This document shows, piece by piece, positions 4,699 to 22,912 of a DNA stretch of 47,552 nucleotides (position 1 is its first letter; every line of letters begins with the position of its first letter). Made by a program: the position numbers and the translations under genes. Source of the DNA: an uncultured Syntrophomonadaceae bacterium (GTDB lineage Bacteria; Bacillota; Dethiobacteria; PWVN01); the NCBI GenBank assembly GCA_964646795.1, contig CAZYHL010000001.1, positions 1-47,552 on the forward strand, written 5' to 3'. Under the pieces are notes generated by a model, which made no database searches, was not told where the DNA came from, and saw only the letters and a list, made by a program, of their open reading frames with translations.

Positions 4699-4727
4699 TT
4701 AGCAACTGTAGTAATGAGTACTATAGT
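4699..4727 (+). promoter_or_regulatory. rightward sigma70-like promoter (weaker -35)
   Basis: TTAGCA-actGTAGTAATGagtac-TATAGT (17-nt spacer). Contains the same GTAGTAATG box as the other early promoters. Confidence 0.45.
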
Positions 4728-4752
4728 ATGTCACTACGTACCAACTATTACA

Positions 4753-4782
4753 TTGACACATTAATTGCAGTAATGTTATCAT
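4753..4782 (+). promoter_or_regulatory. rightward sigma70-type promoter with extended -10 (early class)
   Basis: TTGACA-cattaattGCAGTAATGt-TATCAT (18-nt spacer). Lies about 80 nt upstream of the ATG at 4862. Confidence 0.6.
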
Positions 4783-4810
4783 ACAAATGATGGCAGTTAC
4801 TCCTTTGTAT

Positions 4811-4851
4811 ATGAGTGCTTAGGTTCCTTTGGAGGGTTCCTAGGCACTCAT
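4811..4851 (+). promoter_or_regulatory. 13-bp stem-loop / inverted repeat in the leader of the first rightward gene
   Basis: atgagtgcttagg (4811-4823) pairs with cctaggcactcat (4839-4851), including one G-U. The real RBS GAGGA starts 2 nt after the stem. Confidence 0.55.
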
Positions 4852-4861
4852 TGAGGATCAG

Positions 4862-5452: not shown

Positions 5453-5892
5453 ACCAACGCACTATCGACCTCATCAAACAAAACGAAGGCTTCTCTGCCA
5501 CAGTCTATCTTTGCCCTGCAGGGTTTCATACAATAGGTTACGGCCACAACTGCGACGCTCACGGTGACCTCAATGCTTACATCAATCGCACTCTTTCTCC
5601 AGCAGAAGCTGATGATCTTCTTCTCTCCGATATAAGTGATGTTGAAAAAGATCTTACAAAATTTGTACGAACTTTTGATTCCCTAGATGAAGTACGCCAG
5701 GGTGTACTCATAGATATGTGCTTCAACTTAGGCATTGGTGGTCTGAAAAATTTCAAAAAATTTCTGAGACATTTGCTAGTTGGTAACTACAGATGGGCTG
5801 CACGTGAGATGTATGACTCTAAGTGGTTTAAGCAAGTCCCTCTTCGTGCCTCCAAGAATATGTTCATGATCCTCACAGGAGAATACTTCTAA
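5449..5892 (+). CDS. endolysin, GH24 (T4-type) lysozyme
   Basis: IDLIKQNEGFSATVYLCPAGFHTIGYGH matches the E..G..Y.D..G..TIGYGH lysozyme signature. GTG start in a GTGA overlap, preceded by GAGGAGG. Confidence 0.85.
   Translation: MNQRTIDLIKQNEGFSATVYLCPAGFHTIGYGHNCDAHGDLNAYINRTLSPAEADDLLLSDISDVEKDLTKFVRTFDSLDEVRQGVLIDMCFNLGIGGLKNFKKFLRHLLVGNYRWAAREMYDSKWFKQVPLRASKNMFMILTGEYF
5649..5673. repeat. PAL25 copy inside the endolysin CDS
   Basis: agatcttacaaaatttgtacgaact, coding KDLTKFVRT. Confidence 0.9.
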
Positions 5893-6377
5893 TGGGTGGC
5901 ATCTTGACAACCATAGGCTCTATCGCTGGAGGAGGGGTTAAAGACCTTGTCCTCGGCGTCTTAGATCGTATCAAGTTAGCCCCTGAAAAGAAGGCCGAAG
6001 TTGAACTTGCCATGGCTAACAATGCCCTCGAGTTGCAAAAGCTAGACTTCGAACTCCAGAAGAAACAACAGGACTATGAGCAATCTGTTACTGAATCTCA
6101 GAAGGCAATCATCGTAGCTGAGATGTCTCAAGGTGATGCCTACACAAAGAGAGCTCGTCCAACAATAGTCTACGCTGGTCTCGTCTTTGTAATCCTCAAT
6201 TACATAGTCCCTACCTACATGGGTTTCTTTGCAAACAAAGCAGTCCCAGAAGTCCCTATTCCTGCTGATTTCTGGTGGGTATGGGGAGGTGTTTGTGGTA
6301 CCTGGATCGTAGGCCGCTCTATGGAGCGTCGCGGTATAGGTATGTCTAAAACTACTAAATCCCTCACAGGAGTTTAA
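5892..6377 (+). CDS. holin candidate (resembles the GTA-type 3-TM holin family)
   Basis: The N-terminal LDRIKLAPEKKAEVELAM segment, coiled coil, then ARPTIVYAGLVFVILNYIV and further TM segments match my recollection of PF11351-like holins. Adjacent to the endolysin. Confidence 0.55.
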   Translation: MGGILTTIGSIAGGGVKDLVLGVLDRIKLAPEKKAEVELAMANNALELQKLDFELQKKQQDYEQSVTESQKAIIVAEMSQGDAYTKRARPTIVYAGLVFVILNYIVPTYMGFFANKAVPEVPIPADFWWVWGGVCGTWIVGRSMERRGIGMSKTTKSLTGV

Positions 6378-6683
6378 ATGTCTCATATCCTCGAAAGGTT
6401 TTTCACCCACTTTGCTGCATCGACTTTCTTAACCCTAGCATTTTTCTACGCACTTAATTATTGGCTTAGAAGAACATCCAAAGTCGGCATCTGGCTATCT
6501 TCTCGCAAAGAGCATTTATTAGTAACTTCAGCATTACTAGTCTTCTCCCTAATGACTCTTCGAGAGCCTTTCGATGTTTACTTTGGTACACAGGTATGGT
6601 ACAAAGCTATCACAGATCAAGTCTCCTGGTTCTTAGGTGCAGCAACTAGCGTATATGGCCTTTACAGATATAGTAAATCCTAA
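6378..6683 (+). CDS. multi-pass membrane protein (lysis accessory?)
   Basis: Three hydrophobic segments. AGGAG RBS. Follows the holin. Confidence 0.6.
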   Translation: MSHILERFFTHFAASTFLTLAFFYALNYWLRRTSKVGIWLSSRKEHLLVTSALLVFSLMTLREPFDVYFGTQVWYKAITDQVSWFLGAATSVYGLYRYSKS

Positions 6684-6734
6684 TGACTTAGCTAGAATTC
6701 TCCGAGTACCACACGACGAACTTTGGAAAGTTAG

Positions 6735-7190
6735 ATGAAGTCACTACTTCTTCTCCCATTCTTAGCAATTAATCTATTCGCAGGTGAAGTATGGCTAGCG
6801 TGGGATCCTTCTGAAACGTCAGAAGTTACTGGGTACAGAGTATATATAGGTACAGCTTCACGTAACTATTCTGGATTCAAAGATGCTGGAAACGCCCTCG
6901 AATACAAGGCCAAAGACCTTCCGAATGGAATAGTCCATTACTTCGCGGCGACCGCCTACGACGCCGACGGCAACGAAAGTGACTATTCCAATGAGGCCTC
7001 AACCAAAGTTATCACCTGCGACCTTAACAACGATAGTTCAGTAAATGTCCTTGATCTCCAGCTCATGATAAACCTTATCCAAACCAACCAGCTCACTCAA
7101 GCTCACGATCTTAACAAGGATAGTGTATTAAACATTCTAGATTTCCAAACTCTCATAAACGTCTTATCAGGAAAACAGTCGTGTCGATAG
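6735..7190 (+). CDS. secreted FN3 domain protein with C-terminal dockerin-like module
   Basis: Signal-peptide-like MKSLLLLPFLAINLFAGE. FN3 signature LAWDPSE..VTGYRVYIG...YFAATAYDADGNESDYSNE. Two dockerin-type repeats, DLNNDSSVNVLDLQLMINLI and DLNKDSVLNILDFQTLINVL. Confidence 0.7.
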   Translation: MKSLLLLPFLAINLFAGEVWLAWDPSETSEVTGYRVYIGTASRNYSGFKDAGNALEYKAKDLPNGIVHYFAATAYDADGNESDYSNEASTKVITCDLNNDSSVNVLDLQLMINLIQTNQLTQAHDLNKDSVLNILDFQTLINVLSGKQSCR

Positions 7191-7201
7191 GAAGTGAAAC
7201 T

Positions 7202-7474
7202 ATGGTCATAGCAAATGTTTCGTGTAGTGCAAACCCAGCTGAAGAAGCCATTACTGGGTATAACTTTTACCTCAACGGTGCAATCCAGGGAAACTCTCCC
7301 ATCCCTTCATTCACCATCGAGAATGTTCCTGCAGGGACTAATTCGTTTGAAGTCTCAGCTTTCAACCTCCTCGGGGAAGGTCCTAAGAGTGATCCATTCA
7401 TTCTGGCCGTCCCAGCAGGTGGGCCGTCCAAAACTGTCAATGTTCAAGTCACAGTGAGTGTAACCGTTTCCTAA
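7202..7474 (+). CDS. FN3/Ig-like domain protein (90 aa)
   Basis: ITGYNFYLNGA...FTIENVPAGTNSFEVSAFNLLGEGPKSDP. Start taken at the ATG at 7202 (the track gives GTG at 7181). Confidence 0.6.
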   Translation: MVIANVSCSANPAEEAITGYNFYLNGAIQGNSPIPSFTIENVPAGTNSFEVSAFNLLGEGPKSDPFILAVPAGGPSKTVNVQVTVSVTVS

Positions 7475-7788
7475 TGAAAACTATCCTGTTTGTCAATAAG
7501 GAAGTTGCTTCACTCCAATGTGACGTACTAACTTCAGGGAGGGTAACTTTGATAGTCGATGCAGCAAAAGAGAAATCAATCCAGGTTTCTCCCCTCCCTG
7601 ATGGTTTCATACGGATTATGGTATTCGGAATGAACCAGAATTTATTCTCTGGAGCTTTTGTTCACGTAGATGACTTCATCTCCTCTATCACCAATGTGGT
7701 GTGTGCAGATGCTAACGCTGGTAATGCTCACGCTGTTATTTCGAAGATATCGTCCCCAGCTAATGTTGTTGCTGAGACCGTTAAATAA
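7474..7788 (+). CDS. hypothetical beta-rich protein, tentatively cohesin-like (104 aa)
   Basis: The pattern LQCDVL..G.V / DGFIRIMVFGMNQNLFSGAFVHV / ITNVVCADANAGNAHAVI is reminiscent of cohesin beta-sandwich segments. This rests on eye-level similarity only. Confidence 0.3.
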   Translation: MKTILFVNKEVASLQCDVLTSGRVTLIVDAAKEKSIQVSPLPDGFIRIMVFGMNQNLFSGAFVHVDDFISSITNVVCADANAGNAHAVISKISSPANVVAETVK

Positions 7789-7799
7789 TTAAACGAACT
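7775..7799. repeat. degenerate PAL25 copy abutting the ATG at 7800
   Basis: agaccgttaaataattaaacgaact. The right arm and following bases (acgaactatgaa, 7793-7804) are repeated at 10683-10694. Confidence 0.5.
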
Positions 7800-8543
7800 A
7801 TGAAAATAGCCATTCACTCCATGATCCGAGATGCTTACAAGCCTTACCTAGACGAATGGCTTGCTCATCATAGGGCTTTAGGCATAGATCATTTCTTCAT
7901 CTATGATCATGATAGTGTAGAACCCTTAGCTAGAATTCTCAAAAATGCCTCAGATGTGACGGTAAAACCTATTCATGGCACACCTAGTGCAAACCTAGGC
8001 GTACATAAAACATCCTATTTAGACTTCCTTGGGCTCCTCAAAGAAGGCTACCTCCCTCATTATGATCGCGTAGCTTTCATAGACGAAGATGAGTTCATCA
8101 TCTGTTCAAATGGCAGCATAAAGGACACCTTAGCAAATTATCAAGACTGCCCTGCAATAGGCGTGAGTTGGCGCATCTTTGGCTCTTCAGGTGTGCAAAC
8201 AAGAACTCCCGAACTCCAAGCAAAGAAGTTCACTAAGCACACAAGTAGATTCTACCACTCCAACATCAATATGAAGAGTATAGTTAATCCTTACCTAGTA
8301 AAGGACTATCTATCCCCTCACTCATTTTCCTATCACTTAGGCAACGCAGTCAATGAGCATCACATAGTAATTCCATCACACTATACCTACCCCTCCTATG
8401 ACTACATCTGGATAAACCACTATTGGACACGTAGTAGGGAGGAATTCATAGTTAAAGCCGACAGAGGATTGGCTGATACAGGTGAGAAACGCGACTACTC
8501 AATGTTTGATGATGTAGAGATTAATTGTACAGAATCTATATGA
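7800..8543 (+). CDS. glycosyltransferase (GT2_4/GT92-like fold)
   Basis: YLDEWLAHHRALGIDHFFIYDHDS and FIDEDEFII (DxD-type) motifs, typical of this family. Confidence 0.65.
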   Translation: MKIAIHSMIRDAYKPYLDEWLAHHRALGIDHFFIYDHDSVEPLARILKNASDVTVKPIHGTPSANLGVHKTSYLDFLGLLKEGYLPHYDRVAFIDEDEFIICSNGSIKDTLANYQDCPAIGVSWRIFGSSGVQTRTPELQAKKFTKHTSRFYHSNINMKSIVNPYLVKDYLSPHSFSYHLGNAVNEHHIVIPSHYTYPSYDYIWINHYWTRSREEFIVKADRGLADTGEKRDYSMFDDVEINCTESI

Positions 8544-10666
8544 AGACACTATTAATAGCCCTCTACCCTTATAACGCGCAAGGCCTTGATGCCTGGCTCG
8601 ATCATTCCTCTGGAATGACCTACACAGCTGCTAAAAACGCTGGATGTGACATAGACTTCCTCGACATGAAGTCCCTCCACAACGATGAACAACTCAAGTC
8701 AGCTATGCAAGGCTACGATCTCATCGCATTCGGCCTAAAAAGCTCATACTACCCATTAGGCATGAAAGTGATTCAATTCGCTAAAGCTCAAGGATCTAAA
8801 ACCATCGTAGGAGGATACCACGCTACTGCAGCTCCCGAGGAGCTTCTCGAAAACCCACTTATCGACTACGTCTTCCACAAAGAAAGTGAACTAACTTTCC
8901 CTCAATTTCTGCTTAACCCTGCCCAATTCCCCAGGGAAATCTTCGGCGAGTCTGTACAAAATTTGGACGAACTACCATTCATGGACCGTTCTATGTTCCG
9001 CAGTCCACTAGAACCAGTCCTTTCCTGGTGGCATGGCGGACAGAGGGCATTCATGACTTCCATCATCACTAGTCGTGGATGCCCTTATCGCTGTGCTTTC
9101 TGCCAGCCAATAGAAGATAATCACTTTGGGAAGAAACTTAGACGTAGGAGTGTAGATTCAGTAATTGAAGAACTTGCACTTCTCAAGTACTTATACAATC
9201 CAGACTGCTTAATGATCCATGATGATACCTTTCTACTCCAACGTAACTGGCTTGAAGAATTCATAGAGAAGTATCCTCAAATAGGTCTCCCTTTCTGGGC
9301 TGCGGGACGTGCAGATGGAATCATCAAGTATGAAGACTTGGTTCGTAAATTAGTAAATGTAGGCTGGGAACTCATCTCTGTCGGCTTCGAAAGTGGCTCT
9401 CAAAAAATCCTCAACAAGATGAAGAAGGATACCACTGTCGAGCAAAACCTCGAAGCTGCTCGCATCATCAAGTCCACTGGAGCAAAGATATATGCCAACT
9501 ATATGCTTGGCCTTCCTTGGGAAACCAAAGCAGATGTTCAAGCTACAATGTCCATGGCTGACGCCATCGATGCAGAGATGCCTTCATGGGCCTACTTCAC
9601 TCCCTACCCTGGCTGCGAACTTGCCAACGAGATCAACGAGAACAACTGGTCCCTCCTCGACCGAAACAACTACTATCGTCTTCCTTCAGGTGAAAAGGTA
9701 ACTAATGTCGACTACTCTTATCTTCTCTCGTGTCTTAGAGGATTCAGGGAATCCAGGCCTGCACTACTTACAGACATTATCATTCCAACCTATGAAAATG
9801 AACAACTCACAGTGGATTGCTTTGAATCTATCAAGGCTTCTACTACTCCAGGAACTTATCGAATCATCTGGGTGGACAACGGATCTAGAAACTTCGAGTT
9901 GGCTAAACGAGCTATTAGAGATATAGAGCATTTATCATACAGGTTTGACACTAATCAAGGTTTCGTAGTTGCAGTAAACAAAGGCCTCACTCTCAGCGAC
10001 GCACCTACAGTAATGCTCCTCAACAACGACACTCGCGTGTACAAAGGGTGGCTAGACAAACTCATTCGTATCCTCTGGTCCGACGAGAAGATTGGCATTG
10101 TAGGCCCACTAACAGGCTATGCACCTCCAAGCAAAGAAGACTCTCCTCATTGCCTTAATCTCCACAAAGATCTTCTCCCTCCTGAGGCTCGAGAGTGGAA
10201 CTTTGAAAAGCTTAATGAAGCATTAGAGAATGGCTACACTGGTCGTACTGCAGAAGCACCATTCGTAGCTTTCCTCGCAGCACTCATTCGTCGAGAAGTA
10301 ATCAACGTCATAGGCCCTCTTGACACCAACTTCAAACACGGAATGTGGGATGATGTTGACTATAATCGTAATGTAAGGAACATAGGCTACAAGTGCCTCT
10401 ATGCCCTTGACACAGTAATCTACCATCGTGGGCGCAGCACTTTTAACATGATAGAAAAAGAGGAAGGCTTCAATGTAGGCAAGCTCCTTGCCACAAACAA
10501 AGAGTACCTTGATCGCAAGTGGAATGATAACGTAGTGCTTGGTGTACCTAAGAAATCCATAACAGCTTCTCCAACTCTGAGCATACTAACTCGTCGTAAC
10601 TCCTGGCGAAGTCGTATAGAAAAGCCTAAATTCGTAACTGATTACGATAAGCCTAAAGACCTATAG
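8540..10666 (+). CDS. fusion protein: B12-binding-like domain + radical SAM core + GT2 glycosyltransferase (708 aa)
   Basis: ATGA overlap start. N-terminal Rossmann-like segment (DLIAFGLKSS...TIVGGYHATAAPEELL). CxxxCxxC cluster GCPYRCAFC (nt 9080-9103). C-terminal IIIPTYENE...IIWVDNGS...LLNNDT...WDDVDY GT2 motifs. Confidence 0.8.
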   Translation: MKTLLIALYPYNAQGLDAWLDHSSGMTYTAAKNAGCDIDFLDMKSLHNDEQLKSAMQGYDLIAFGLKSSYYPLGMKVIQFAKAQGSKTIVGGYHATAAPEELLENPLIDYVFHKESELTFPQFLLNPAQFPREIFGESVQNLDELPFMDRSMFRSPLEPVLSWWHGGQRAFMTSIITSRGCPYRCAFCQPIEDNHFGKKLRRRSVDSVIEELALLKYLYNPDCLMIHDDTFLLQRNWLEEFIEKYPQIGLPFWAAGRADGIIKYEDLVRKLVNVGWELISVGFESGSQKILNKMKKDTTVEQNLEAARIIKSTGAKIYANYMLGLPWETKADVQATMSMADAIDAEMPSWAYFTPYPGCELANEINENNWSLLDRNNYYRLPSGEKVTNVDYSYLLSCLRGFRESRPALLTDIIIPTYENEQLTVDCFESIKASTTPGTYRIIWVDNGSRNFELAKRAIRDIEHLSYRFDTNQGFVVAVNKGLTLSDAPTVMLLNNDTRVYKGWLDKLIRILWSDEKIGIVGPLTGYAPPSKEDSPHCLNLHKDLLPPEAREWNFEKLNEALENGYTGRTAEAPFVAFLAALIRREVINVIGPLDTNFKHGMWDDVDYNRNVRNIGYKCLYALDTVIYHRGRSTFNMIEKEEGFNVGKLLATNKEYLDRKWNDNVVLGVPKKSITASPTLSILTRRNSWRSRIEKPKFVTDYDKPKDL
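8949..8973. repeat. PAL25 copy inside the radical-SAM/GT2 CDS
   Basis: agtctgtacaaaatttggacgaact, coding ESVQNLDEL. Confidence 0.85.
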
Positions 10667-10689
10667 ATCCTCCAAAAATTGTACGAACT
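10665..10689. repeat. PAL25 copy (intergenic, CCTCC variant)
   Basis: agatcctccaaaaattgtacgaact. Its first two bases are the AG of the TAG stop at 10664-10666. The ATG at 10690 abuts the right end. Confidence 0.9.
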
Positions 10690-10827
10690 ATGAATAGATT
10701 CCTAGACACATTCAACAAGTTTCCAACCGACAAGCCTCAATATGCGGACTTCTACAATAGGATTTTCACAGGGATAAATCCAAAGATCATTCTTGAACAA
10801 AATATAGTAATGTTGAGGAAGAGATAG
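10690..10827 (+). CDS. 45-aa ORF, possibly the N-terminal remnant of a SAM-dependent methyltransferase
   Basis: MNRFLDTFNKFPTDKPQYADFYNRIFTGINPKIILEQNIVMLRKR resembles the GTDK..H.Y...Y...F......ILE start of LPS-cluster methyltransferases. The stop overlaps the terminase GTG (TAGTG). Confidence 0.35.
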   Translation: MNRFLDTFNKFPTDKPQYADFYNRIFTGINPKIILEQNIVMLRKR

Positions 10828-12386
10828 TGGAAGATAATCAACTTCAGGAAATCTTATACCAATGCAGTATATCCACCAGGATGACTGCTAAGACTTTCTT
10901 TCCTGAGCGGTTTAGTCTTCCATTTGCTCCAGCAATTCACGACAAGATCTTCTCTATGATCGACGATCCTACCCATCAAATGATAGCTATTGCCGCACCT
11001 CGTGGTTATGGGAAGACTTCTATTGATGCACTTGCGTTGCCTGCTAGATACATTATGTTCAGACTAGCCAACTTCATAGTCTACATCAACAAGTCTGAAA
11101 CTGCTGCAATTATGCAGACTGAGAACCTTCGTCGTGAATTAGTAACCAACAGAGACATCAAAGGCATCTTTGGTAATGTGCGAGTCAGGGCAACTTCCAA
11201 TGATGAGATGGAAGAGCAGTTTAGTAAAAAATCCTGGGTTGCATATGACACTATGGTACTCCCTCGAGGGGCAGGCCAGCAAGTTCGCGGAATCCTCTAC
11301 AAGAATTCTCGACCTTTACTATTCATCATTGACGACTTGGAAGATCCAGAACTTATAGAAAACAAGGATTATCGTGACAAGTTGTACCAGTGGCTCTATG
11401 CAGATGTTATCAAAGCAGTCCCACGTATAGGTCCTGATGCTAAACGGTGGAAAGTAATCTACATCGACACTCTCAAACACGAAGACTCTGTCCTCCAAAG
11501 GTTAATGGACTCACCTGACTGGCACTCCATTCGTCTCGAGGCTTGTGATGATAACTTCAAATCAACCGCTCCGGAATTCCTCAGCGATGAAGACATTGCT
11601 CTTGAATGGGACAAGCATGTCAACTCAGGACAAACAGATGTATTCTTTAGAGAGTTGCGCAATCTGCCGATTAGCACGAAGGACTCTGCATTCCAGCAAC
11701 AGTATTTTAAATACTACAATACACCACCTGAACGTACACTTAGAGCAGATATAGACCTTAAAGTTACTGATGCAGAACTTCAATACAACAAAGAAGTTGA
11801 AACAATAGTCATTGTTGACCCTGCCAAAACAGTCAAGATGAACTCTGCTGAATCAGCTGTCATAGGCATAGGCATCGACATAGCCAATGCTCGCCTTTAC
11901 ATCCGTGATGCTATATCGAAGAAAGTAATGCCTGATGAGCTTTACGACGAAGCCTTTGGAATGGCAATCCGCTTAGGGGCTAAAGTCATAGGCGTTGAAA
12001 CTACTGGCCTCGAAGAGTTCATCAAACAACCTTTCAAAAATGAGATGTTTCGCAGAGGGAAGTTCTTTGAGCTAGTGTGGCTCAAGGCGCGTGGTGGTAG
12101 CAAGAATGAAAAAGGCAAGATACTCCGCATTAGGGAGATGGTTCCTTATTATCGTCTAGGTTACATCTACCATAATGCCTCCTGTCCTGATGTGAAGAAG
12201 TTAGAACAGCAATTGCTTAAGTTTCCTCGTTCCAAACTACTGGATCTTATGGATGCTGAGGCTTACATCATAGAGATGCTCGAATTAGGCGAACGTTACT
12301 TTGCAACAACCAATACTGATGACCCCGAATCAGAGTTTAAAGAACTAGATTATGAAGATCCTGTGGAACGTTGGAGAATTGCATGA
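10827..12386 (+). CDS. terL: terminase large subunit
   Basis: Walker A AAPRGYGKTS and Walker B LLFIIDDLED, with a C-terminal nuclease-like half. GTG start. Confidence 0.9.
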   Translation: MEDNQLQEILYQCSISTRMTAKTFFPERFSLPFAPAIHDKIFSMIDDPTHQMIAIAAPRGYGKTSIDALALPARYIMFRLANFIVYINKSETAAIMQTENLRRELVTNRDIKGIFGNVRVRATSNDEMEEQFSKKSWVAYDTMVLPRGAGQQVRGILYKNSRPLLFIIDDLEDPELIENKDYRDKLYQWLYADVIKAVPRIGPDAKRWKVIYIDTLKHEDSVLQRLMDSPDWHSIRLEACDDNFKSTAPEFLSDEDIALEWDKHVNSGQTDVFFRELRNLPISTKDSAFQQQYFKYYNTPPERTLRADIDLKVTDAELQYNKEVETIVIVDPAKTVKMNSAESAVIGIGIDIANARLYIRDAISKKVMPDELYDEAFGMAIRLGAKVIGVETTGLEEFIKQPFKNEMFRRGKFFELVWLKARGGSKNEKGKILRIREMVPYYRLGYIYHNASCPDVKKLEQQLLKFPRSKLLDLMDAEAYIIEMLELGERYFATTNTDDPESEFKELDYEDPVERWRIA

Positions 12387-12604
12387 CAGAAGGCATAATC
12401 ATAGGAGTCACTGTGGCATTATTTACTGGAATGTTAGGCATTATTCTTGGAAGTAAGAAAAAAGTATCTGAAGAAGACTTTGGCAGGCACAAGTCAGATC
12501 CCTTCCCTCATCAGAATTGCGCAGTACATAAAAGCAAGATTGATGATATAAAGTCTCAATTAACTCACATGGATGGGAAACTTGATAAGTTGCTTGAACG
12601 ATAG
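12383..12604 (+). CDS. small N-terminally membrane-anchored protein (73 aa)
   Basis: Start revised to the ATG at 12383 (ATGA overlap). TEGIIIGVTVALFTGMLGIILG TM segment, then a coiled coil. Confidence 0.6.
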   Translation: MTEGIIIGVTVALFTGMLGIILGSKKKVSEEDFGRHKSDPFPHQNCAVHKSKIDDIKSQLTHMDGKLDKLLER

Positions 12605-12627
12605 TTCCTACAAAATTTGTACAAACT
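12603..12627. repeat. PAL25 copy (intergenic), at the left edge of the GC-rich island
   Basis: agttcctacaaaatttgtacaaact. Embeds the AG of the TAG stop at 12602-12604. Confidence 0.9.
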
Positions 12628-12723
12628 TATAAATTTATTAGTTATTGTTGTAAGCGACCCATGCAGGTAAATATTCATGAGCGCACTAATTGAGTCGGAA
12701 GAAGGAATGAGTCGGAGATAAAC

Positions 12724-13773
12724 ATGGCACTATTACACGTTGACGGCATCCCATACGATAGTCCAACGGCGGCAGCGCCGCGCAAATGGACCACCGTGTC
12801 CATATCAGGGTATGGATCTAATCTCACGGTACAGACATCTTCTGGCCGTTTTGGCGGTAGATGGTTGAATTTCAGCTGCTCTACATCCCAAACGGGCTCA
12901 TATGTTACGGCAGCAAAGACATTCGGCGGGACGTCATCGACTATAATAGCTCAGTTTGGCTATTTGCCGATTGTTAATAATGCAGGCACTATAAAATTGA
13001 TGCAGCTCAGAGATGGTACGGCCCCGCAAATAACACTGAATGACAACGCTGGGATATTGGAAGTGCGCAGAGGGGATTACAATGGGACTTTATTGGGCGC
13101 GGCGTCGTTGGCAATTTCAACAAATGTGTGGCACCAGATTGAAGTCAAGGCGGTCATAAACAACAGCGCTGGAAGCGTACTCATCAAGGTAGACGGGGTA
13201 ACGCTAATTGACATCAGCGGTGCCGATACCCAGGCAACGGCAAATGCATACGCTAATGGTATATCTTTCGAAGCATATGGGATGCATAGAAGATTCGGTC
13301 TGTCTGATTTAGTGGTAATGGATACGTCTGGAAGCTACTGCAACGACCTGCTTGGCTCGATAATAGTGGAGCTAAAATCACCTACTGGAGATGGGTATTA
13401 CCATGACTTTGTTCCCTTAACTGGCAGTGATAACTATGCCATGGTTGATGATTTGCCCCCGGATGATGACACTAGTTATAATACCGGGAGCGTAGGTGAT
13501 CGGGACACGTTCACCTTCGACGATATAGCTAATGTCTCCGCAACGATACATGGAGTGGCGTGTACAATGTTTGCAAAACTCAATGATGGAGGGTCTGCCT
13601 CCGTTAAGGGCATGGTGCGATCAAATGGAGTTGACGCGGAAGGCGCTGCTGTTGCGGTCCCGTCGTCTTATGATTTCCTGCAAGACTTCATTTATGTAGA
13701 CCCCAATACATCCCAGCCGTTCACGGTATCATCCCTGAATAGCGCTGAATTCGGATATAAGAGGGAATCATAA
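12724..13773 (+). CDS. hypothetical virion/fibre-associated protein (349 aa), GC-rich module
   Basis: ORF track. Beta-rich sequence (possibly a lectin/LamG-like jelly roll, unverified). Composition is clearly GC-richer than the genome. Confidence 0.6.
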   Translation: MALLHVDGIPYDSPTAAAPRKWTTVSISGYGSNLTVQTSSGRFGGRWLNFSCSTSQTGSYVTAAKTFGGTSSTIIAQFGYLPIVNNAGTIKLMQLRDGTAPQITLNDNAGILEVRRGDYNGTLLGAASLAISTNVWHQIEVKAVINNSAGSVLIKVDGVTLIDISGADTQATANAYANGISFEAYGMHRRFGLSDLVVMDTSGSYCNDLLGSIIVELKSPTGDGYYHDFVPLTGSDNYAMVDDLPPDDDTSYNTGSVGDRDTFTFDDIANVSATIHGVACTMFAKLNDGGSASVKGMVRSNGVDAEGAAVAVPSSYDFLQDFIYVDPNTSQPFTVSSLNSAEFGYKRES

Positions 13774-14015
13774 TGGCCGATGCCGATAAAGTGGTAATTA
13801 GCCAGGCGGTTGCTGAAGTGGTCCACGGAGGAGCGTCCTCTGATGCCAGGGTGTCTCAGTTTGTCATAGAGTTATTACAGCAGGTAGTGGATCTCAATGT
13901 TTCTATATCTACCCTTGCAATCGAAGTAATCCGCGACACCCCAACGACATCATTCAATCCATCGTGGCTCAGTTGCCATTCGCGAATAATCGGAGGAGGT
14001 TTAAATGTATCCTAG
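13773..14015 (+). CDS. hypothetical protein (80 aa), GC-rich module
   Basis: TAATG overlap start. Same composition as its neighbours. Confidence 0.6.
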   Translation: MADADKVVISQAVAEVVHGGASSDARVSQFVIELLQQVVDLNVSISTLAIEVIRDTPTTSFNPSWLSCHSRIIGGGLNVS

Positions 14016-15996
14016 GGATGCGGCATCTCCGCCAGAGATAGCAGTTGGTGCGGTTGTGCAAATCAGTGATGGCGCAGTGCAAACTTCGGACACAACCACT
14101 AAGGTCAAGCCCAAAGGTGGAGCGTGGACAGCCGCAGGCGGAACCACGTCATTCGGTGACGGCGGCACCGCCACATACATTCCGATTCAGGCCGAGACTA
14201 ACTATGAGTCGTTCATGGTTGAAGTTTATAAGAGTGGGTGTATTCCAGCTTCTGCAACTGTTGTTACCTCCGCTTCTGCAACAGCAGGTCAGACTGTCGT
14301 GGCGACCAATAACGACAAGACCGGGTACGGCCTCGCTGACGACGCCATCACCAGCGCCAAGTTTGATGAGTCCACCGCGTTCCCTCTCAAGAGTGCAGAT
14401 ACTGGCGCTACCGCAGTCGCCCGTACTGGGTCCGGTAGTGACACGCTGGAGACATTGAGTGATCAGATGGATGCACTGCCAGCTGGAGTTCGAGACGTGA
14501 GCAACGCCGCTCCTGCCGCCGGGTCACTGGGAGAGAAGGTCAATAGTGCGGCGTCTGCTGGAGACCCGTTGGCGTCGAGCGTCCCCGGAGCATATGAAGC
14601 CGGAACCGCTGGATATATTCTCGGCACAAACCTTGATGCAAAGGTAAGTGAAGCTGGAGGCGGGGCAGCTCTGACAGTGGAGGAGATCCGCGCCGAAATC
14701 GATTCCAACTCAACGAGGCTTGCTTCTATTGATGGGAAGACAACGAATTTACCTTCCGATCCTGCCGACCAGTCGCTTGTTATCGCTGCTACCGATGCCA
14801 TCCTGACCAGGCTGGGCGCGCCAGCTGGAGCCTCTATGTCGGATGATATTGCGAATATAGTCGCAGACCTCGGGACTATCGTCCCGACGACAGATGCCCC
14901 TGATGCAGAGGTTGTCGCCAAGGGGACCGTCATTGCGGGCAGCTACGTAAACTGCCAGACAGACGACAATAATCAATACACAATTGCCCCAGTAAACCCA
15001 GGTGGAATTGACGTAGAACTCGACTTCACGATCGTGGGATCTAGAGCTCCTGTGAGTCTGAGTATCAACGGTTACTTTAAAGGTTCTGGCCGGGCGGTAG
15101 ATGTTTATGTTCTCGACTCGGAAATCGATTATTGGGACAAGCTCACCAACACTTCCACCCGGATGGCCAGTCGCAATTCCGAGACTAATTACAGTTTCCT
15201 TTTGAACCGAGAGCACATCAATCCATCGACAGGGGTAGTCAAGGTTCGATTTGTCTCAACCTCAACTACTACCTCCCATCGTCTTTACCTTGACCGTGTT
15301 CTTGTAGGCACTGTCGATATCAGTACGGGGCAAACCCCGGGTATCACTGCCCAAGATATCTGGACATATCCGGATCGCACCACGACCAACAGTGATACTG
15401 GCGATCCAGTTAACCCTCCGTCTGTTGACGAGATAGCTGCTGGCATTTTAGTTACCCCGGCACAGAAGGTTGTTACTGACGCGAGCGGATTTGTGACGGC
15501 AAATGTGAATGGCTCCATCAGTGTTTCCGGGGATGTCACCCTGGCTGCGAATCAGCCGAACTATGCTCCAGCTAAGGTGAGCGATATCCCAACGGCCGAT
15601 ATTGCGGAGATTAAGGCTAAGACTGATAATCTCCCAGTAGCTCCATCATCTCTTACAGCGCAGCAAGTATGGGAATATGCAACTCGTACTTTGAGTGCAT
15701 TTGGATTTAGTGTAACTGTAGGAACTAATAATGATAAAACTGGATATACTTTGACAGCAACGCCGCCAACATCAGAAGAAATAGCTGATAAGTTATTGGG
15801 TAGAAATCTTGCTGGCGGGTCTGATGGTGGGCGTACAGTACAAGATGCTTTAAGATTTAGTAGGAATAAGGTAGTAGTTAATCTAGTAGCAAAAACTATT
15901 ACTGTCTATGAAGAGGATGATACTACCATTGCTTGGGAAGGGGTACTTACAACTTCAGCAGCTGCTCAACATATAACAGGATTAGATCCATCATGA
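14005..15996 (+). CDS. tail fibre / host-recognition protein (663 aa), chimeric in composition
   Basis: GGAGGAGG RBS. Ala/Thr/Gly-rich fibre-like sequence with recurring NNDKTGY.L and KT.NLP motifs. The first ~1.6 kb is GC-rich and the last ~0.35 kb has genome-typical GC. Confidence 0.65.
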   Translation: MYPRDAASPPEIAVGAVVQISDGAVQTSDTTTKVKPKGGAWTAAGGTTSFGDGGTATYIPIQAETNYESFMVEVYKSGCIPASATVVTSASATAGQTVVATNNDKTGYGLADDAITSAKFDESTAFPLKSADTGATAVARTGSGSDTLETLSDQMDALPAGVRDVSNAAPAAGSLGEKVNSAASAGDPLASSVPGAYEAGTAGYILGTNLDAKVSEAGGGAALTVEEIRAEIDSNSTRLASIDGKTTNLPSDPADQSLVIAATDAILTRLGAPAGASMSDDIANIVADLGTIVPTTDAPDAEVVAKGTVIAGSYVNCQTDDNNQYTIAPVNPGGIDVELDFTIVGSRAPVSLSINGYFKGSGRAVDVYVLDSEIDYWDKLTNTSTRMASRNSETNYSFLLNREHINPSTGVVKVRFVSTSTTTSHRLYLDRVLVGTVDISTGQTPGITAQDIWTYPDRTTTNSDTGDPVNPPSVDEIAAGILVTPAQKVVTDASGFVTANVNGSISVSGDVTLAANQPNYAPAKVSDIPTADIAEIKAKTDNLPVAPSSLTAQQVWEYATRTLSAFGFSVTVGTNNDKTGYTLTATPPTSEEIADKLLGRNLAGGSDGGRTVQDALRFSRNKVVVNLVAKTITVYEEDDTTIAWEGVLTTSAAAQHITGLDPS

Positions 15997-16178
15997 TACA
16001 GTGGTTTTATTGGCTTTGGGGAGCAGTAGGTATTTACACTGGAGAAGTATGTGCAGTGCCTAAAATCTCTGCTATATCAACAATATTAGTTGGAGAATCT
16101 GAAATATCTACAGAAATTCCAATAGTATCTAAAATTACTTCTGAGGTACAATATAGTGAGAGAGACATTTGTAGGTAA
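15993..16178 (+). CDS. hypothetical small protein (61 aa)
   Basis: ATGA overlap with the fibre stop (MIQWFYWLWGAVGIY...). Confidence 0.45.
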   Translation: MIQWFYWLWGAVGIYTGEVCAVPKISAISTILVGESEISTEIPIVSKITSEVQYSERDICR

Positions 16179-16452
16179 TACTCCAAAACTTATACTAAAG
16201 ACATCTATAGATCTTAGCGACTTCGATGCTCTTTATATAAAGTATAAAACTCCTAGTGGACTAACTGGATATTTTGCCGCTAATAAGAGTAGTGATAATA
16301 ACCAGTGGATGGAAGCTCAACTTGGACCGACTGATTTACCTGAAGCAGGTGAATGGACTCTTCAAGCATTAGTTTCTGATATAGGAGGTGATCCTATATT
16401 TGATGGGGACTTCGTTAACTTGAAAGTGAAAACTCCTATAGCTTTACCATAG
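16156..16452 (+). CDS. hypothetical beta-sandwich-like structural protein (98 aa)
   Basis: ORF track, GTG start. Lies between the fibre and portal genes. Confidence 0.55.
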   Translation: MRETFVGNTPKLILKTSIDLSDFDALYIKYKTPSGLTGYFAANKSSDNNQWMEAQLGPTDLPEAGEWTLQALVSDIGGDPIFDGDFVNLKVKTPIALP

Positions 16453-16475
16453 TCTCTACATAAATTGTACGAACT
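16451..16475. repeat. PAL25 copy (intergenic, upstream of portal)
   Basis: agtctctacataaattgtacgaact. Embeds the AG of the TAG stop at 16450-16452. The portal ATG is 9 nt downstream. Confidence 0.9.
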
Positions 16476-16484
16476 GGAGATAAA

Positions 16485-18443
16485 ATGCCTTACATTGTAA
16501 CATCAGATCCTGCATCTTGGAAAGGGATGGATTATAGTAGGAAGAACTATGACTATAATTATCCAGAAGGACTTGATCTCAAACCAGGATCTAAGCTTCA
16601 TGACTCTATACGTGATAAAGTCTGGCAACGTGCCAGGGCATCACGTAATGAGATACAGAAGAGATTTAGTTCTTGGAAGGAAATAGATAGGACGTTGACA
16701 TCTTATATTCCACTTAAGGAAGTAGAGCAGATTTCTAAAGACGCTGATTCCACAAAGCCTGTTTCCATAGTATTTCCTTACTCGTATGCATCCCTTGAGG
16801 CAATGCTCACTTACTTAATGCAAGCTTTCATTCAAGACCCTATTTGGAAATACGAAGGTGTAGAGAGTGATGATACAGTAGGGGCTGCATTACTTGAATT
16901 GTTAATCAGGCTCCACTGCATCGAATCCAAAGTAGCACTCAACCTGCATACACTCTTCAGGGACGGTATGGCCTATGGCATTGGAGCTGCAATTCCAGAG
17001 TGGAATCGCAAGTTTGGGAAGAAAGCAGTACGTTCATCTGTAACTACTACTTCTCCAATAGGTACCATGTCTGACGAGTCCATACAATTTTTGGATGATC
17101 TATTATTTGAAGGGAATGCGCTAAGTAATATAGATCCCTACATGCTTCTCTTAGATCCTTCTGTTTCCAGTGTAGATATTCAAAAGGGAGAATACTTCGG
17201 CTGGGTTGAACGAGACAACTATATGAACTTGCTTTCCGAAGAAGGTCAGCAAGATTCAGGTATGTTCAATGTCAAGTATCTACGCGACAAGCAGAATAAA
17301 CGATCTGTGTTTGCATTAGATCAGAGTGATAGGGAGGTCAAGTTCGGCTCAGCTACTAACCTATATGGCATGGCTGATGTGACAAATCCAGTGGATCGTA
17401 TTAAGATGTACATCACCTTAATACCTTCCGAGTGGGATTTGTCTGACTCTGATTATCCTGAGAAGTGGTTATTCGAACTTGATTCTGACGACATAGTAAC
17501 GCGTTGTGAACCTGCCAATCACAATCACGGGATGTATCCTGCAGCTGTGATCTCACCAGAGTATGACGGCTACTCTATGACCCCCATAGGTAGATTGGAG
17601 ATAGCTTATGGATTACAGAACACACTGGACTTCCTCTTCAACTCCCATATCAGTAATGTACGTAAAGCCATCAACGACATGCTCGTTGTGGATCCCTACT
17701 TGGTCAACATCGAAGACCTCAAAGATCCTCAGCCTGGAAAGCTTATACGTTTGCGTAGGCCTGCCTGGGGACGTGGAGTAGATAAGGTAGTCCAGCAACT
17801 AGGAATTCAAGACATAACTCGCCTCAATGTCCAAGATGCAGGGATTGTTCAGAGCATGATGGATAGGATATTGGGCACTGATTCTTCATTGCAGGGTGTT
17901 CAACGCCAAGGTGGACCTGAGCGTCTTACACTCGGAGAGTTCCAAGGTACTCGTGCTTCATCTGTAAGCCGATTGCAGAGAGTAGCCCAAATAATCAGCC
18001 TCCAAGGCATGTCTGACATTGGTAAGATGTTTGCAGTTCACACTCAACAATATACCACTAAGGATACCTATGTTAAAGCAACTGGCAGGTATGCTGAGAA
18101 ACTTATCAAAACTTTTGGCAACGATAGGATCAAAGTATCTCCTAGGGATTTAGCTATTAGTTATGATGTCATACCTCATGATGGTTCAGTTCCAGGTGCA
18201 GGTTTCTCACCTGCCTGGTTGGAGATGTTTAAGACTATTGGGACGTCAGAGTTGTTGGCACCTCAGTTTGATGTGGTTAGACTATTCGAATATATAGCTT
18301 ATCAACTAGGCGCTAAGAACATAGATGATTTCAAAGCTAAATCAAATCAAATCAATCCAACTATGATGCCTGACCAACAGGTAATGTCTGAGGTACAAAA
18401 AGGTAACATGATACCTACTTCACAAATGGAGTCTGCTGCATGA
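16485..18443 (+). CDS. portal protein
   Basis: 652 aa, positioned after terL and before the scaffold/capsid genes. GGAG RBS. Confidence 0.75.
   Translation: MPYIVTSDPASWKGMDYSRKNYDYNYPEGLDLKPGSKLHDSIRDKVWQRARASRNEIQKRFSSWKEIDRTLTSYIPLKEVEQISKDADSTKPVSIVFPYSYASLEAMLTYLMQAFIQDPIWKYEGVESDDTVGAALLELLIRLHCIESKVALNLHTLFRDGMAYGIGAAIPEWNRKFGKKAVRSSVTTTSPIGTMSDESIQFLDDLLFEGNALSNIDPYMLLLDPSVSSVDIQKGEYFGWVERDNYMNLLSEEGQQDSGMFNVKYLRDKQNKRSVFALDQSDREVKFGSATNLYGMADVTNPVDRIKMYITLIPSEWDLSDSDYPEKWLFELDSDDIVTRCEPANHNHGMYPAAVISPEYDGYSMTPIGRLEIAYGLQNTLDFLFNSHISNVRKAINDMLVVDPYLVNIEDLKDPQPGKLIRLRRPAWGRGVDKVVQQLGIQDITRLNVQDAGIVQSMMDRILGTDSSLQGVQRQGGPERLTLGEFQGTRASSVSRLQRVAQIISLQGMSDIGKMFAVHTQQYTTKDTYVKATGRYAEKLIKTFGNDRIKVSPRDLAISYDVIPHDGSVPGAGFSPAWLEMFKTIGTSELLAPQFDVVRLFEYIAYQLGAKNIDDFKAKSNQINPTMMPDQQVMSEVQKGNMIPTSQMESAA
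17077..17101. repeat. PAL25 copy inside the portal CDS
   Basis: agtccatacaatttttggatgatct, coding ESIQFLDDL. Confidence 0.8.
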
Positions 18444-19931: not shown

Positions 19932-21239
19932 ATGTTTCGAGGTATGCGTGGAACTGGCGATTGGGTAACAGATCAGAGGCCTAAGAGTTGGAGAGAGGCT
20001 ATTATGTACCTCTACCCCAACGGTATGGCTCCGTTGACTGCTATCCTTTCTATGATGAAGTCTTCCCGTGTAGATGATCCTGAATTCTACTGGTGGACGC
20101 AGACGCAAGGATCAGTGCAGGGTGCAGTGAGTGGTGTGTACACTTTGCCTGATTTGAGTGTGGCTTATGTAAAGGGTGGAGTTGCAGGTACGGTACTTTA
20201 TGTTGTTGTGTCTACAACTCTTGGAAAGAGCATTCGCGAAGGCCATCAGATCCTTCTGAGAGATGCTTCTGATTATTCCGTAGATGTCAATGGGAAGGTG
20301 ACCAATGTCACTATTGGTGGAGCTAACACAGTTCTAGCAGTTAAGCTGCTGGAAGGTGATGATAACTCCCTTACTCACGACCTTAGTGATTGTGATACCT
20401 TCAAAATCATCGGTAACATCAACCCTGAAGGTGGCGAGATGCCTGATGCTATTGCGCAGGACGTTACCAAAGTCTACAACAAAACCCAGATCTTCCGTAC
20501 TCCTTTGTCTCTCACTCGCACTGCGATGAAGACTAAGCTTCGCACTCCTGATGCGTATCAGAAGGCGAAGAAAGAAGCTCTGGAGATGCACTCTTTCGAA
20601 ATGGAACTTGCTTTCATCTTCGGAATTATGACTGAGAACACAGGTGATAATGGTAAGCCTGAGCGTACGACTCGGGGACTTATAGATTTCATTAAAACCT
20701 ATGCTTCGGCCAACTGTGATGATTTTCAAGCTAATGCCACTTACGCTGGTAAGGATTGGACTGACACCTTCAACGGTACTACTGCAGGCCAAGATTGGCT
20801 TGATACTTATTTCGAACAGATCTTCCGTTATGGGGCAGGTGAGAAACTAATGTTGTGTGGGTCTGGTGCGTTGTTAGGTATTCAACGCCTCGCTGCTGCT
20901 GGCGGTACTGTGCAGCTCCAGCCTGGTGCCAAAACCTACGGAATGCAGATCATGGAATGGCTGACGCCGTTTGGTAAGATCAACCTGAAGACTCATCCAC
21001 TCTTCAGCCATGATGCAACTACTCGCAACATGGGAATTATCATCGAGCCTTCGGAACTTGAGTACTGCTACATTGATGATACTCAGTTCTACGGTGAGAG
21101 TAATTCCAAGTCTCATGCTGAGGGCTATGGCAATCGACGCCTTGACGGTCTCAACGAGGAGTTCCTCACTGAATGTGGGCTTCGATTTGGTCTTGCTGAA
21201 AAGTGCGGAATTCTTAACGGAATTGGCCTGAACGCATAG
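19932..21239 (+). CDS. major capsid protein
   Basis: 435 aa. AAGGAG RBS. Follows the scaffold gene and is followed by GC-rich hairpins. Confidence 0.75.
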   Translation: MFRGMRGTGDWVTDQRPKSWREAIMYLYPNGMAPLTAILSMMKSSRVDDPEFYWWTQTQGSVQGAVSGVYTLPDLSVAYVKGGVAGTVLYVVVSTTLGKSIREGHQILLRDASDYSVDVNGKVTNVTIGGANTVLAVKLLEGDDNSLTHDLSDCDTFKIIGNINPEGGEMPDAIAQDVTKVYNKTQIFRTPLSLTRTAMKTKLRTPDAYQKAKKEALEMHSFEMELAFIFGIMTENTGDNGKPERTTRGLIDFIKTYASANCDDFQANATYAGKDWTDTFNGTTAGQDWLDTYFEQIFRYGAGEKLMLCGSGALLGIQRLAAAGGTVQLQPGAKTYGMQIMEWLTPFGKINLKTHPLFSHDATTRNMGIIIEPSELEYCYIDDTQFYGESNSKSHAEGYGNRRLDGLNEEFLTECGLRFGLAEKCGILNGIGLNA

Positions 21240-22402: not shown

Positions 22403-22912
22403 ATGCCTTGGTCACCTAATGGAGAATTCACCTTTATAATTAAACCTGCTGAACTTGCCAAAGGTTTAAGATGGACTCGTAGGAATTCTCGTAATGAGAA
22501 GTTTTTGACAGAGTGTTATGGAGCAGTAGGCTATGACAATGTGCTACAGGCACTTGAAGATATAACAGGTGATTGGATAGATACTTCGGCATTGGTAGAA
22601 GCAGCATTTCCATTTCCTCAGTTGTTTGTGTTTACTAATTTGATTGTCCTAGCTACGCAGACTAAGATATATGAAGTAGATCCAGTTGCTAAGACTTTGA
22701 CTGAGAAACTCACTATAGCTGAAGGCGTGTTATGGTCAGCTGTGGATTTTGGCGAGTTTGTGTATATGAGTAACGGAGTAGTTGCTGTGACGAGAAGTGC
22801 CACTAGTATGGTGTGGGCAACTACTACTGACGTTCCCCTTTGTGGTGCGATGTGTAACTTTAATGGGCAAGTAATTATTGGCTCTGCTGATGTTGAACAG
22901 GTTCCTCTATGA
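22403..22912 (+). CDS. hypothetical tail protein (169 aa)
   Basis: ORF track. GGAG RBS. Confidence 0.6.
   Translation: MPWSPNGEFTFIIKPAELAKGLRWTRRNSRNEKFLTECYGAVGYDNVLQALEDITGDWIDTSALVEAAFPFPQLFVFTNLIVLATQTKIYEVDPVAKTLTEKLTIAEGVLWSAVDFGEFVYMSNGVVAVTRSATSMVWATTTDVPLCGAMCNFNGQVIIGSADVEQVPL

Follow-up and report, generated by a model that had tools for sequence, protein, structure and literature searches.

An in-frame compositional mosaic in a putative host-recognition fibre gene of an uncultured SU10-type phage

Mosaicism of tail fibres is classical in the phages P2, Mu and lambda. Genomic islands of deviating composition, and the amelioration of transferred DNA, are the subject of the model of Lawrence and Ochman. 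For tail fibres, a conserved attachment part combined with hyperplastic distal parts has been described in a 1998 study (cited in PMC3157838) and by Trojet et al. (2011; PMC3157838). Host-recognition modules common to distantly related phage families have been described as well, for example in the Alteromonas schitovirus A5 (PMC10579305). Here we analyzed a stretch of 47,552 nucleotides (nt) from an uncultured phage (contig CAZYHL010000001.1; the whole stretch is called the window in the following) with a focus on a gene for a putative fibre protein of 663 amino acids (aa), which is located between the terminase and the portal gene. It is likely (probability of roughly 0.7) that this gene is an in-frame mosaic, in which a foreign front rich in guanine and cytosine (GC) is joined to an AT-adapted end, and that it belongs to an accessory host-recognition cassette inserted in this slot.

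Composition step within the fibre gene

The GC content is 51.2% over positions 12640-15640 versus 41.7% in each of the two flanks (1-12639 and 15641-47552); for the whole window it is 42.3%. Windows of 500 nt outside this island show a mean of 0.417 with a standard deviation (SD) of 0.031 and a maximum of 0.486, whereas values of up to 0.574 are reached inside and up to 0.62 if windows of 200 nt are used. The island is not uniform, with 48.4% GC for 12724-14004 and 54.0% for 14005-15621. It spans the open reading frames (ORFs) of two proteins named p349 and p80 and the first 1.6 kb of the fibre ORF. The extent and the GC content of the island agree with the preliminary description of the window, which had proposed a GC-rich island over these three ORFs and whose hand counts were exact (0.567 for 12721-12780, 0.633 for 14521-14580 and 0.450 for 7801-7860). 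Spurious overlapping ORFs, also mentioned there, were found within 14045-15539, where four ORFs of 84-156 aa overlap the genes and the six-frame stop density is 0.035, about half of the genome-wide 0.060.

The shift is present in sliding-window GC and is highly significant in codon usage. According to a maximum-likelihood analysis of the third codon positions, the composition of the fibre gene changes after codon 539 (nt 15622); the 2-log-likelihood support interval is 15610-15640. The GC content at third codon positions (GC3) drops from 0.523 before this change-point to 0.161 behind it, and none of 1000 permutations was as extreme. The island was expected to end near 15,600-15,650 without a break of the reading frame, and this in-frame step is found exactly there. 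A single ORF holds both the GC3-richest and the GC3-poorest segment of the genome (Table 1). Since one gene and one mRNA are concerned, the step does not result from expression-linked codon bias.

The step falls inside the motif IKAKTDNLP, whose codons are hybrid. The 5' half is like the copies of GC-rich phages (ATC AAG GCC AAG) with G-ending codons, and the 3' half is A/T-ending, like the all-A/T-ending copy (ACA GAT AAT CTT CCA) of a related phage, L002. GC-rich and AT-rich copies of the motif share less than 27 nt. In total, 666 homologues of the fibre were found, of which 120 listed ones were used for the motif and module surveys. The pattern K[TS][DTN]NLP occurs 89 times in 53 of these 120 proteins; at least five kinds of modules occur before it and at least five after it, and these are combined in many ways. 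At the protein level, IKAKTDNLP is a family-wide seam between interchangeable modules in these sequences. The change-points of the window and of L002 both lie inside the motif, for which chance is roughly estimated at 0.002. A regular expression for the linker motif matched none of the 16 other fibres whose GC3 steps are most pronounced. Six of these (L089, L050, L093, L039, L087 and L086) show significant intragenic steps with a log-likelihood ratio (LLR) of 11-27; in L039 the step is located exactly at the end of the conserved N-terminal domain (N-domain).

A rise of the GC content could also occur without any transfer, if it only reflected a fibrous protein composition. The fibre is rich in alanine, glycine, threonine, serine and proline, and its GC content at second codon positions (GC2) is 0.52 versus about 0.36 in the background. 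With the codon usage of the phage itself as a reference, the GC excess was split into an amino-acid and a codon part. Amino acids account for +0.047 and codon choice for +0.068 of an excess of +0.115 in the fibre front (14005-15654); in p349 the corresponding values are +0.022 and +0.040 of +0.061. Amino-acid composition thus makes up about 40% of the raw excess in the fibre. However, four-fold sites have a GC3 of 0.495-0.511 in p349 and the fibre front, compared to 0.286 in a background of 12,307 codons (p = 4e-10 for p349 and 1e-14 for the fibre front in Fisher tests). In the AT-rich end of the fibre, the contribution of the amino acids is the same (+0.041), whereas that of codon choice has the opposite sign (-0.069). 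In addition, one nine-residue motif, NNDKTGY.L, is written once in GC-ending and once in AT-ending codons (Table 1), as the preliminary description had noticed. Amino-acid composition as the only cause is thus highly improbable, and an early reading of the island as mostly amino-acid composition was dropped after the four-fold-site and composition-adjusted tests. The suggested foreign origin would apply to the codon-choice part of the excess and not to the amino-acid part, and the island holds at least two modules (see below).

Relatives of the fibre and of the variable slot

The window represents the complete, circularly assembled genome of an uncultured phage, because its ends overlap by exactly 55 nt (bases 1-55 are identical to 47498-47552) and terminase, portal, head and tail genes as well as a divergently transcribed replication arm are encoded. 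L002 is a syntenic contig of 47.7 kb with 39% GC, which shows identities of 61% for the terminase large subunit, 58% for the portal and 65% for the major capsid protein (MCP). Its slot contains a LamG_3 protein and a fibre of 523 aa. In this fibre GC3 drops from 0.51 to 0.12, and the change-point is again found after IKAK of IKAK/TDNLP, with modules on both sides of the joint that are non-homologous between the two phages. The L002 fibre protein is identical on contigs from three samples, so that its step is biology and not an artefact of the assembler. For the window, a chimera would mean that the assembler joined two co-occurring phages at the shared motif. The window is a metagenome contig from a heterogeneous bin of 270 contigs and its fibre protein is known from this contig only, which would fit such an error. 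On the other hand, the closing overlap of 55 nt exceeds the sequence shared at the joint (27 nt for the motif, of which the copies share less), two in-frame chimeric joints would be required, and the reading frame, the Shine-Dalgarno sequence and the synteny with L002 are intact. Together with the like step in L002, this makes a chimera very hard to believe.

The content of the slot was surveyed in relatives found through the portal. In L006, L007, L009, L010, L014, L016 and L020 the slot is empty, with a gap of 0.24-1.2 kb between terminase and portal, and in L011 and L013 it carries other cargo which is not GC-rich. In the portal tree the window and L002 form a sister pair (support 91/93), and the slot is empty in the other members of the clade around them. 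The N-domain of the fibre is absent throughout four complete relatives, and the profile used finds the window copy at E=6e-76 as a positive control. The whole cassette, its AT-rich end included, is accessory in this lineage. The preliminary description had proposed an in-frame recombination between a foreign high-GC module and a resident C-terminus. The step at the linker motif and the split relationships of the two parts bear this out, whereas "resident" can only mean older in the lineage and not core. An independent insertion of whole cassettes into the two phages is disfavoured, as the portal tree favours one insertion with later turnover of the front as the simpler course. The simplest history is thus a single insertion of the cassette in the common ancestor of the window phage and L002. 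In L011 a possible anomaly of a core gene was observed: the MCP region (about 9572-10861, bounds from tblastn only) shows a GC3 of 0.68 versus 0.43-0.48 in portal and terminase.

The two parts of the fibre have different relatives. Collinear similarity to the protein P0002 extends over residues 1-161 (67% identity) and 210-548 (63%). P0002 is encoded on a 40.5-kb contig that carries GP7 and Bbp16 genes and a portal of the T7 type (PF12236); a second contig encoding this protein (L001) has 51.5% GC. Identity to P0005 is 64% over residues 219-548; this protein belongs to a phage of the same type with 58% GC, in which a LamG_3 gene precedes the fibre. Taken together, residues 1-548 are closest to fibres of podoviruses with 51-58% GC and a different portal type. 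Residues 548-663 are closest to the L002 fibre with 46% identity overall. The C-terminal 78 residues reach 63%, which is equal to the backbone (60-65%), and their codons are AT-rich like those of the backbone gene p98. The same modules occur in SU10-type phages, in GP7/Bbp16-type podoviruses and in a Mu-F/HK97-type phage. Just after the joint, a module of 40 aa around the second NNDKTGYTL motif shows 91% protein identity to a Mu-F/HK97-type phage with 65.6% GC, without DNA similarity. Protein identity is therefore a poor clock, while GC3 reports residence. The protein searches that were proposed for finding the donor lineage lead to the podoviruses with 51-58% GC, and they give no relative closer than 63-67%.

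The left joint of the fibre module is formed by the conserved C-terminal tail of p80, which also contains the Shine-Dalgarno sequence of the fibre (GGAGGAGG, 13992-13999). The same tail ends otherwise unrelated proteins in L112 (282 aa, SFKSYWIPKKLRIIGGGLNVS), L001 (100 aa, FKAYWIPRQSQIIGGGIN) and L002 (271 aa, FKPYWVPKRSVIQGGGLR). Its consensus upstream of the type-A N-domain of fibres is ...(Y/S)W(I/V/L)P..S.II.GGG(I/L). Fibres with an alternative N-domain (MDLRKRG...) are preceded by another tail (LLNPDLHGGFRSMRGGF; LLNPDLHGGFRSM.GGF in L101 and L105). The body of p80 is 42% identical to a 63-aa protein of L101, which follows a p349 homologue and carries the other tail. Since its body is like the L101 protein and its tail like those of the type-A partners, p80 is itself chimeric, with a second in-frame seam in its last ~20 codons. 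By this sequence comparison the island comprises at least two modules, namely p349 with the p80 body, and the p80 tail with the fibre front. In L101, a phage with 46.6% GC, the p349 homologue and its small partner (7001-8226) show a GC3 of 0.23-0.25 versus about 0.45-0.50 in neighbouring genes. This p349-type pair is an AT-rich island, and its polarity is the reverse of that in the window.

To compare the N-domain with its surroundings, 80 viral loci with the same N-domain were fetched, of which 79 were analysable. In these loci the GC3 of the N-domain is correlated with that of the flanking genes (r=0.84), from which it differs by -0.02 on average. Most carriers have 50-60% GC, and low-GC carriers show a GC3 of 0.28-0.37. 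Because it follows the flanking genome, the high GC3 is not intrinsic to the N-domain. In the N-domain tree, the window and L002 belong to a clade of five members. The clade also contains L110, a GP7/Bbp16 podovirus with 54% GC and a GC3 of 0.70-0.76 over the first 100 codons, and L112, a phage with 47% GC and a GC3 of 0.30-0.36. Local selection for GC-ending codons in the fibre front, for example by mRNA structure or translation kinetics, could produce the pattern without recent transfer. It would fit that in both sister phages GC3 is near 0.5 in this region of the gene, although their synonymous sites have diverged to saturation. However, other low-GC carriers use AT-ending codons, even L112 in the same subclade, the upstream modules differ between the two phages so that no common sequence feature is preserved, and the step is abrupt and located at a module seam. 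We regard such selection as very unlikely.

Between the window and L002, synonymous divergence has reached saturation; the proportion of synonymous differences (pS) is 0.86-0.90 in the fibre front. According to a simple two-rate mutation model with an equilibrium GC3 of about 0.3, a GC3 excess decays approximately with exp(-dS/0.42) per lineage (dS, synonymous divergence). It follows from saturation and decay that the excess would not survive such a divergence within low-GC genomes. The two fronts therefore probably diverged largely in GC-richer genomes and were acquired or replaced in separate events that postdate the origin of the cassette. The differing middle modules and first genes of the two cassettes agree with separate replacement of the fronts, which would have been recurrent after the split of the sister phages.

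Several observations weigh against this scenario. The donor-type relatives are only 63-67% identical and no recent donor was found, so that composition is the basis for the direction of transfer. From the genome mean, the AT-rich end deviates as much as the GC-rich part (-0.18 versus +0.19), so that the polarity is an inference. The backbone itself is heterogeneous, with an SD of 0.066 for adjusted GC3 per ORF and values of 0.16-0.57 in windows of 100 codons. Between the window and L002 the N-domain shows 75-77% identity, more than the backbone does, which can also be read as vertical descent. Finally, the fibre protein comes from a single contig, as said above, and its function as a fibre is deduced from architecture, neighbourhood and a model of medium confidence (mean predicted local distance difference test score (pLDDT) of 62).

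Some of these points would suit a reversed or double polarity. In that case the AT-rich 3' end, together with a small ORF overlapping it and p98, would have arrived later from a very AT-rich phage, or both halves would be foreign and the GC-rich part the older resident. The AT-rich end is indeed the most negative GC3 outlier of the genome, and the N-domain is better conserved than the backbone. A further AT-rich, apparently swapped body behind a conserved N-terminus is found at 22909-24882. This second likely receptor-binding gene has 80 initial residues with 56% identity to a syntenic L002 protein and an unrelated remainder, and in composition it is the opposite of the island. Against this stands that p98 is equally AT-rich yet belongs to the backbone, as it occurs in eight relatives including cassette-free ones, and that several late backbone genes of L002 have a GC3 of 0.17-0.20, so that low values are within the range of the lineage. 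Moreover, no backbone stretch holds a GC3 of at least 0.5 across 3 kb, and the identity of the C-terminal domain to L002 matches that of the backbone. Reversed polarity is unlikely on this evidence, although it is the main live rival of a foreign GC-rich front.

The slot holds an accessory, putatively host-recognizing cassette of three genes, p349, p80 and the fibre. The fibre is built from a presumed N-terminal anchor, helical and linker modules, a predicted sandwich similar to carbohydrate-binding modules (CBM) and a conserved C-terminal domain. If the front is foreign, as is likely, the island 12724-15621 would retain the synonymous-site signature of genomes with about 50-58% GC. The best candidate source would be podoviruses with a T7-type portal and GP7/Bbp16, in which the closest relatives occupy the tail-fibre locus. 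The GC-rich part would have been joined in frame to an older, AT-adapted C-terminal module at the 27 nt of IKAKTDNLP, likely by homologous or short-homology recombination at this conserved stretch during co-infection or with a prophage. By this exchange the portion from the anchor to the sandwich would have been replaced and the C-terminal end kept.

As a tentative extension, which we consider possible rather than probable, IKAKTDNLP and the matched pair of upstream tail and fibre N-domain might form a universal adapter set, by which fronts are exchanged repeatedly between unrelated virion architectures of differing GC content. The tail peptide of the upstream protein could then be a docking element for the N-domain of the fibre, beyond a mere overlap with the ribosome-binding site. 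If this were true, the lineage of the window and L002 would keep receiving fronts from a GC-richer phage pool, and there would be regular contact, by co-infection or prophages, between phage groups thought to differ in host.

Genes of the cassette and of the phage backbone

The features of the slot and its surroundings are listed in Table 1.

Table 1. Features of the fibre cassette and neighbouring genes in the window. GC3 is composition-adjusted and given as observed / expected; positions refer to the 47,552-nt window.
Feature	Position	Strand	GC3	Remarks
Terminase large subunit	10827..12386	+		phrog_38, E=9e-66; backbone, left flank of the variable slot
PAL25 copy AGTTCCTACAAAATTTGTACAAACT	12603..12627	.		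96 nt before the first island ORF
p349, predicted ConA-like (LamG-type) virion protein with second beta domain	12724..13773	+	0.484 / 0.358	first island gene; z=5.2
p80, small, chimeric, connector-like protein	13773..14015	+	0.468 / 0.355	body pairs with p349-type genes, tail with fibre N-domain type
Conserved C-terminal tail of p80 FNPSWLSCHSRIIGGGLNVS	13953..14012	+		left joint of the fibre module
Fibre (663 aa), modular, compositionally mosaic, putatively receptor-binding	14005..15996	+		666 homologues with shuffled modules
Fibre front			0.523 / 0.329	z=10; +2.9 between-ORF SD; genome maximum
N-terminal beta domain (residues 1-95), presumed virion anchor	14005..14289	+		26 invariant columns among 11 homologues; pLDDT 91-97
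First NNDKTGY.L motif (NNDKTGYGL)	14308..14334	+		aat aac gac aag acc ggg tac ggc ctc; 8/9 codons G/C-ending
Predicted beta-sandwich (residues 325-440), candidate receptor-binding domain	14977..15324	+		pLDDT 75-89; in the GC-rich part
Junction motif IKAKTDNLP	15610..15636	+		ATT AAG GCT AAG / ACT GAT AAT CTC CCA; change-point after AAG (15622)
AT-rich C-terminal fibre module (residues 540-663, last 124 codons) with small C-terminal beta domain	15622..15996	+	0.161 / 0.341	genome minimum
Second NNDKTGY.L motif (NNDKTGYTL)	15727..15753	+		aat aat gat aaa act gga tat act ttg; 1/9 codons G/C-ending
Small ORF overlapping the fibre 3' end	15933..16178	+		tblastn 37% identity, E=3e-8 to L002/L003/L004
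p98, AT-rich codons	16156..16452	+	0.214 / 0.369	backbone gene adjoining portal; homologues in 8 relatives incl. cassette-free ones; next to minimum
PAL25 copy	16451..16475	.		right end of the slot; equivalent L002 copy at 12033
Portal, SU10-type	16485..18443	+		PF23899, E=4.8e-11; backbone, right flank of the slot
Major head protein	19932-21239
Second likely receptor-binding gene	22909-24882		0.236 / 0.376	next to minimum

The protein p349 matches phrog_2448 (PHROG 2448, function unknown) with E=2.6e-29, residues 3-346 aligning to profile positions 2-332 of 335, and its 170 homologues have a uniform length of about 340 aa. The AlphaFold model is of high quality (pLDDT 94, predicted template modelling score (pTM) 0.91). 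Against BFVD it aligns over the full length to uncharacterised phage proteins with a template modelling score (TM-score) of 0.77-0.88, including an Achromobacter phage "virion structural protein". Foldseek matches in the PDB are generic concanavalin A-like (ConA-like) domains with one domain aligned (E 1e-7 to 1e-5), and viral proteins annotated as ConA/LamG are matched as well. From these models, p349 is predicted to be a ConA-like jelly-roll virion protein. The Pfam profile Laminin_G_3 does not match p349; in L002 and L105 it does match the protein that occupies the corresponding place. When 100 fetched loci were searched with p349 and p80 by tblastn, no match was obtained, and conservation of the two is seen only via the protein database and in one context (L101). 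In L102, a phage with 58% GC, three consecutive p349 paralogues (356, 352 and 329 aa) are located at 3975-7548, with a 140-aa gene between the first two and a Laminin_G_3 protein about 0.5 kb downstream, which shows that the p349 family can be multi-copy. Searches of p80 and p77 in Pfam, NCBIfam and PDB sequences yielded nothing.

The fibre has no match in Pfam, PHROGs, NCBIfam or PDB sequences, and the profiles of T-even gp37/gp38 and Phage_fiber_2 do not match it. No match was obtained by tblastn against 50,697 GenBank phage records, and likewise none by megablast of the region 12000-17000. In other phages, its homologues are located in the tail-gene region. Residues 1-95 are the most widely shared part, common to most of the 120 listed homologues, while middle and end vary; the same C-terminal domain ends many family members. 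The confident parts of the model are the N-domain (1-90), helices at 225-290 and the sandwich at 325-440. For the sandwich, weak Foldseek matches (E ~4e-4, ~120-130 columns) were found to a BcsB carbohydrate-binding domain, the furin/Kex2 P-domain, CBM4 and a mannanase CBM. Among the carbohydrate-binding matches the target-normalised TM-score is at most 0.43 (CBM4), in a model with the medium mean pLDDT given above. The predicted CBM-like sandwich lies in the GC-rich part, and this fits the label "host-range module" that the preliminary description had used. From the predicted sandwich, the modular architecture and the homologues in tail loci, the protein may be a receptor-binding virion fibre. 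The small ORF behind the fibre has its counterpart in a 60-aa gene at the same place in L002, and its true start is probably later than 15933. Integrase, transposase and homing endonuclease domains were found in none of the ORFs between 10827 and 18443.

PAL25 is a palindrome of 25 nt (AGTTCGTACAAAATTTGTACGAACT) with 19 copies in the window (at most 6 mismatches) versus none in shuffled sequences. Copies are found, for example, at 2469, 5649, 10665, 12603, 16451, 18699, 29869, 34962, 39487 and 42697. Most of them are located exactly at gene starts or ends and several overlap a stop codon. Copies also occur in L002 and L005, and L009 has two weak matches. PAL25 is probably a phage-specific regulatory or terminator element. 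It had been stated that the island starts just after one of the copies, which is correct (Table 1). A role as recombination boundary of the cassette is unsupported, because L002 has no copy at the left cassette edge.

The terminase is 61-68% identical across 14 relatives, with a composition-adjusted GC3 close to the background, and the portal is 58-79% identical in 16 viral contigs. The assignment to an SU10-type backbone is based on the match of the window portal to PF23899 and on PF17236 (SU10_MCP) in the MCP of L002. The nearest relative in GenBank is Desulfofustis phage LS06-2018-MD01 with 52.7% MCP identity; the relationship to SU10 is distant, and we do not assign the phage to the genus Kuravirus. 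A fusion of a B12-binding radical-SAM protein with a GT2 glycosyltransferase is encoded at 8525-10666, directly before the terminase gene. With 59% identity to L002 (5035-7083), it belongs to the backbone common to both phages. The phage contig is the largest one in the heterogeneous metagenome-assembled genome G000 (1.94 Mb, 270 contigs), in which the GC content of contigs ranges from 28 to 70% and the GC3 of long ORFs is 0.49. The remaining contigs of the bin contain no homologue of the cassette and no short exact, spacer-like match to the phage contig. The link between bin and phage may be spurious, and nothing reliable about the host can be taken from it.

Comparison with known systems

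The case belongs to ordinary phage gene shuffling. Recombination at conserved motifs of tail fibres has been known since the 1990s and will not surprise a specialist. The locus offers a base-by-base view of how a host-recognition gene is rebuilt, with a linker seam of 27 nt, two codon dialects and a second joint at the same linker in a sister phage. It also points to a very large and so far unnamed fibre family, whose 666 homologues have no entry in Pfam, PHROG, NCBIfam or PDB. The module grammar of this family consists of the N-terminal anchor, the DKTGY and KAKTDNLP motifs and the conserved C-terminal domain. It could aid the annotation of receptor-binding genes in metagenomic phages and guide the design of chimeric fibres in laboratory phage-host pairs.

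In the tail-fibre system of PMC3157838, short and highly conserved motifs separate interchangeable segments, and the joint inside IKAKTDNLP, with its 89 copies and varied neighbours, is similar to this. The window fibre is without sequence relationship to that system (no Pfam or PHROG match), and its motif is KAKTDNLP instead of glycine-rich motifs or His boxes. The phage is of the podovirus type with an SU10-like portal and carries the cassette between terminase and portal, not in a tail module. The exchange partners differ by ~10-15 GC points and in virion type.

The island is like those of Lawrence and Ochman in its atypical synonymous-site GC, its patchy presence among relatives and its sharp boundaries. 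It differs in having one of its boundaries within an ORF, at the site of a protein linker motif, and in lacking an integrase or transposase; the exchange presumably took place by homologous recombination between phages. As in A5 and in P2, Mu and lambda, fibre modules and partner genes move together between unrelated virion types. Unlike in these phages, the partner in the window is a ConA/LamG-like protein with a short tail peptide and not a known chaperone.

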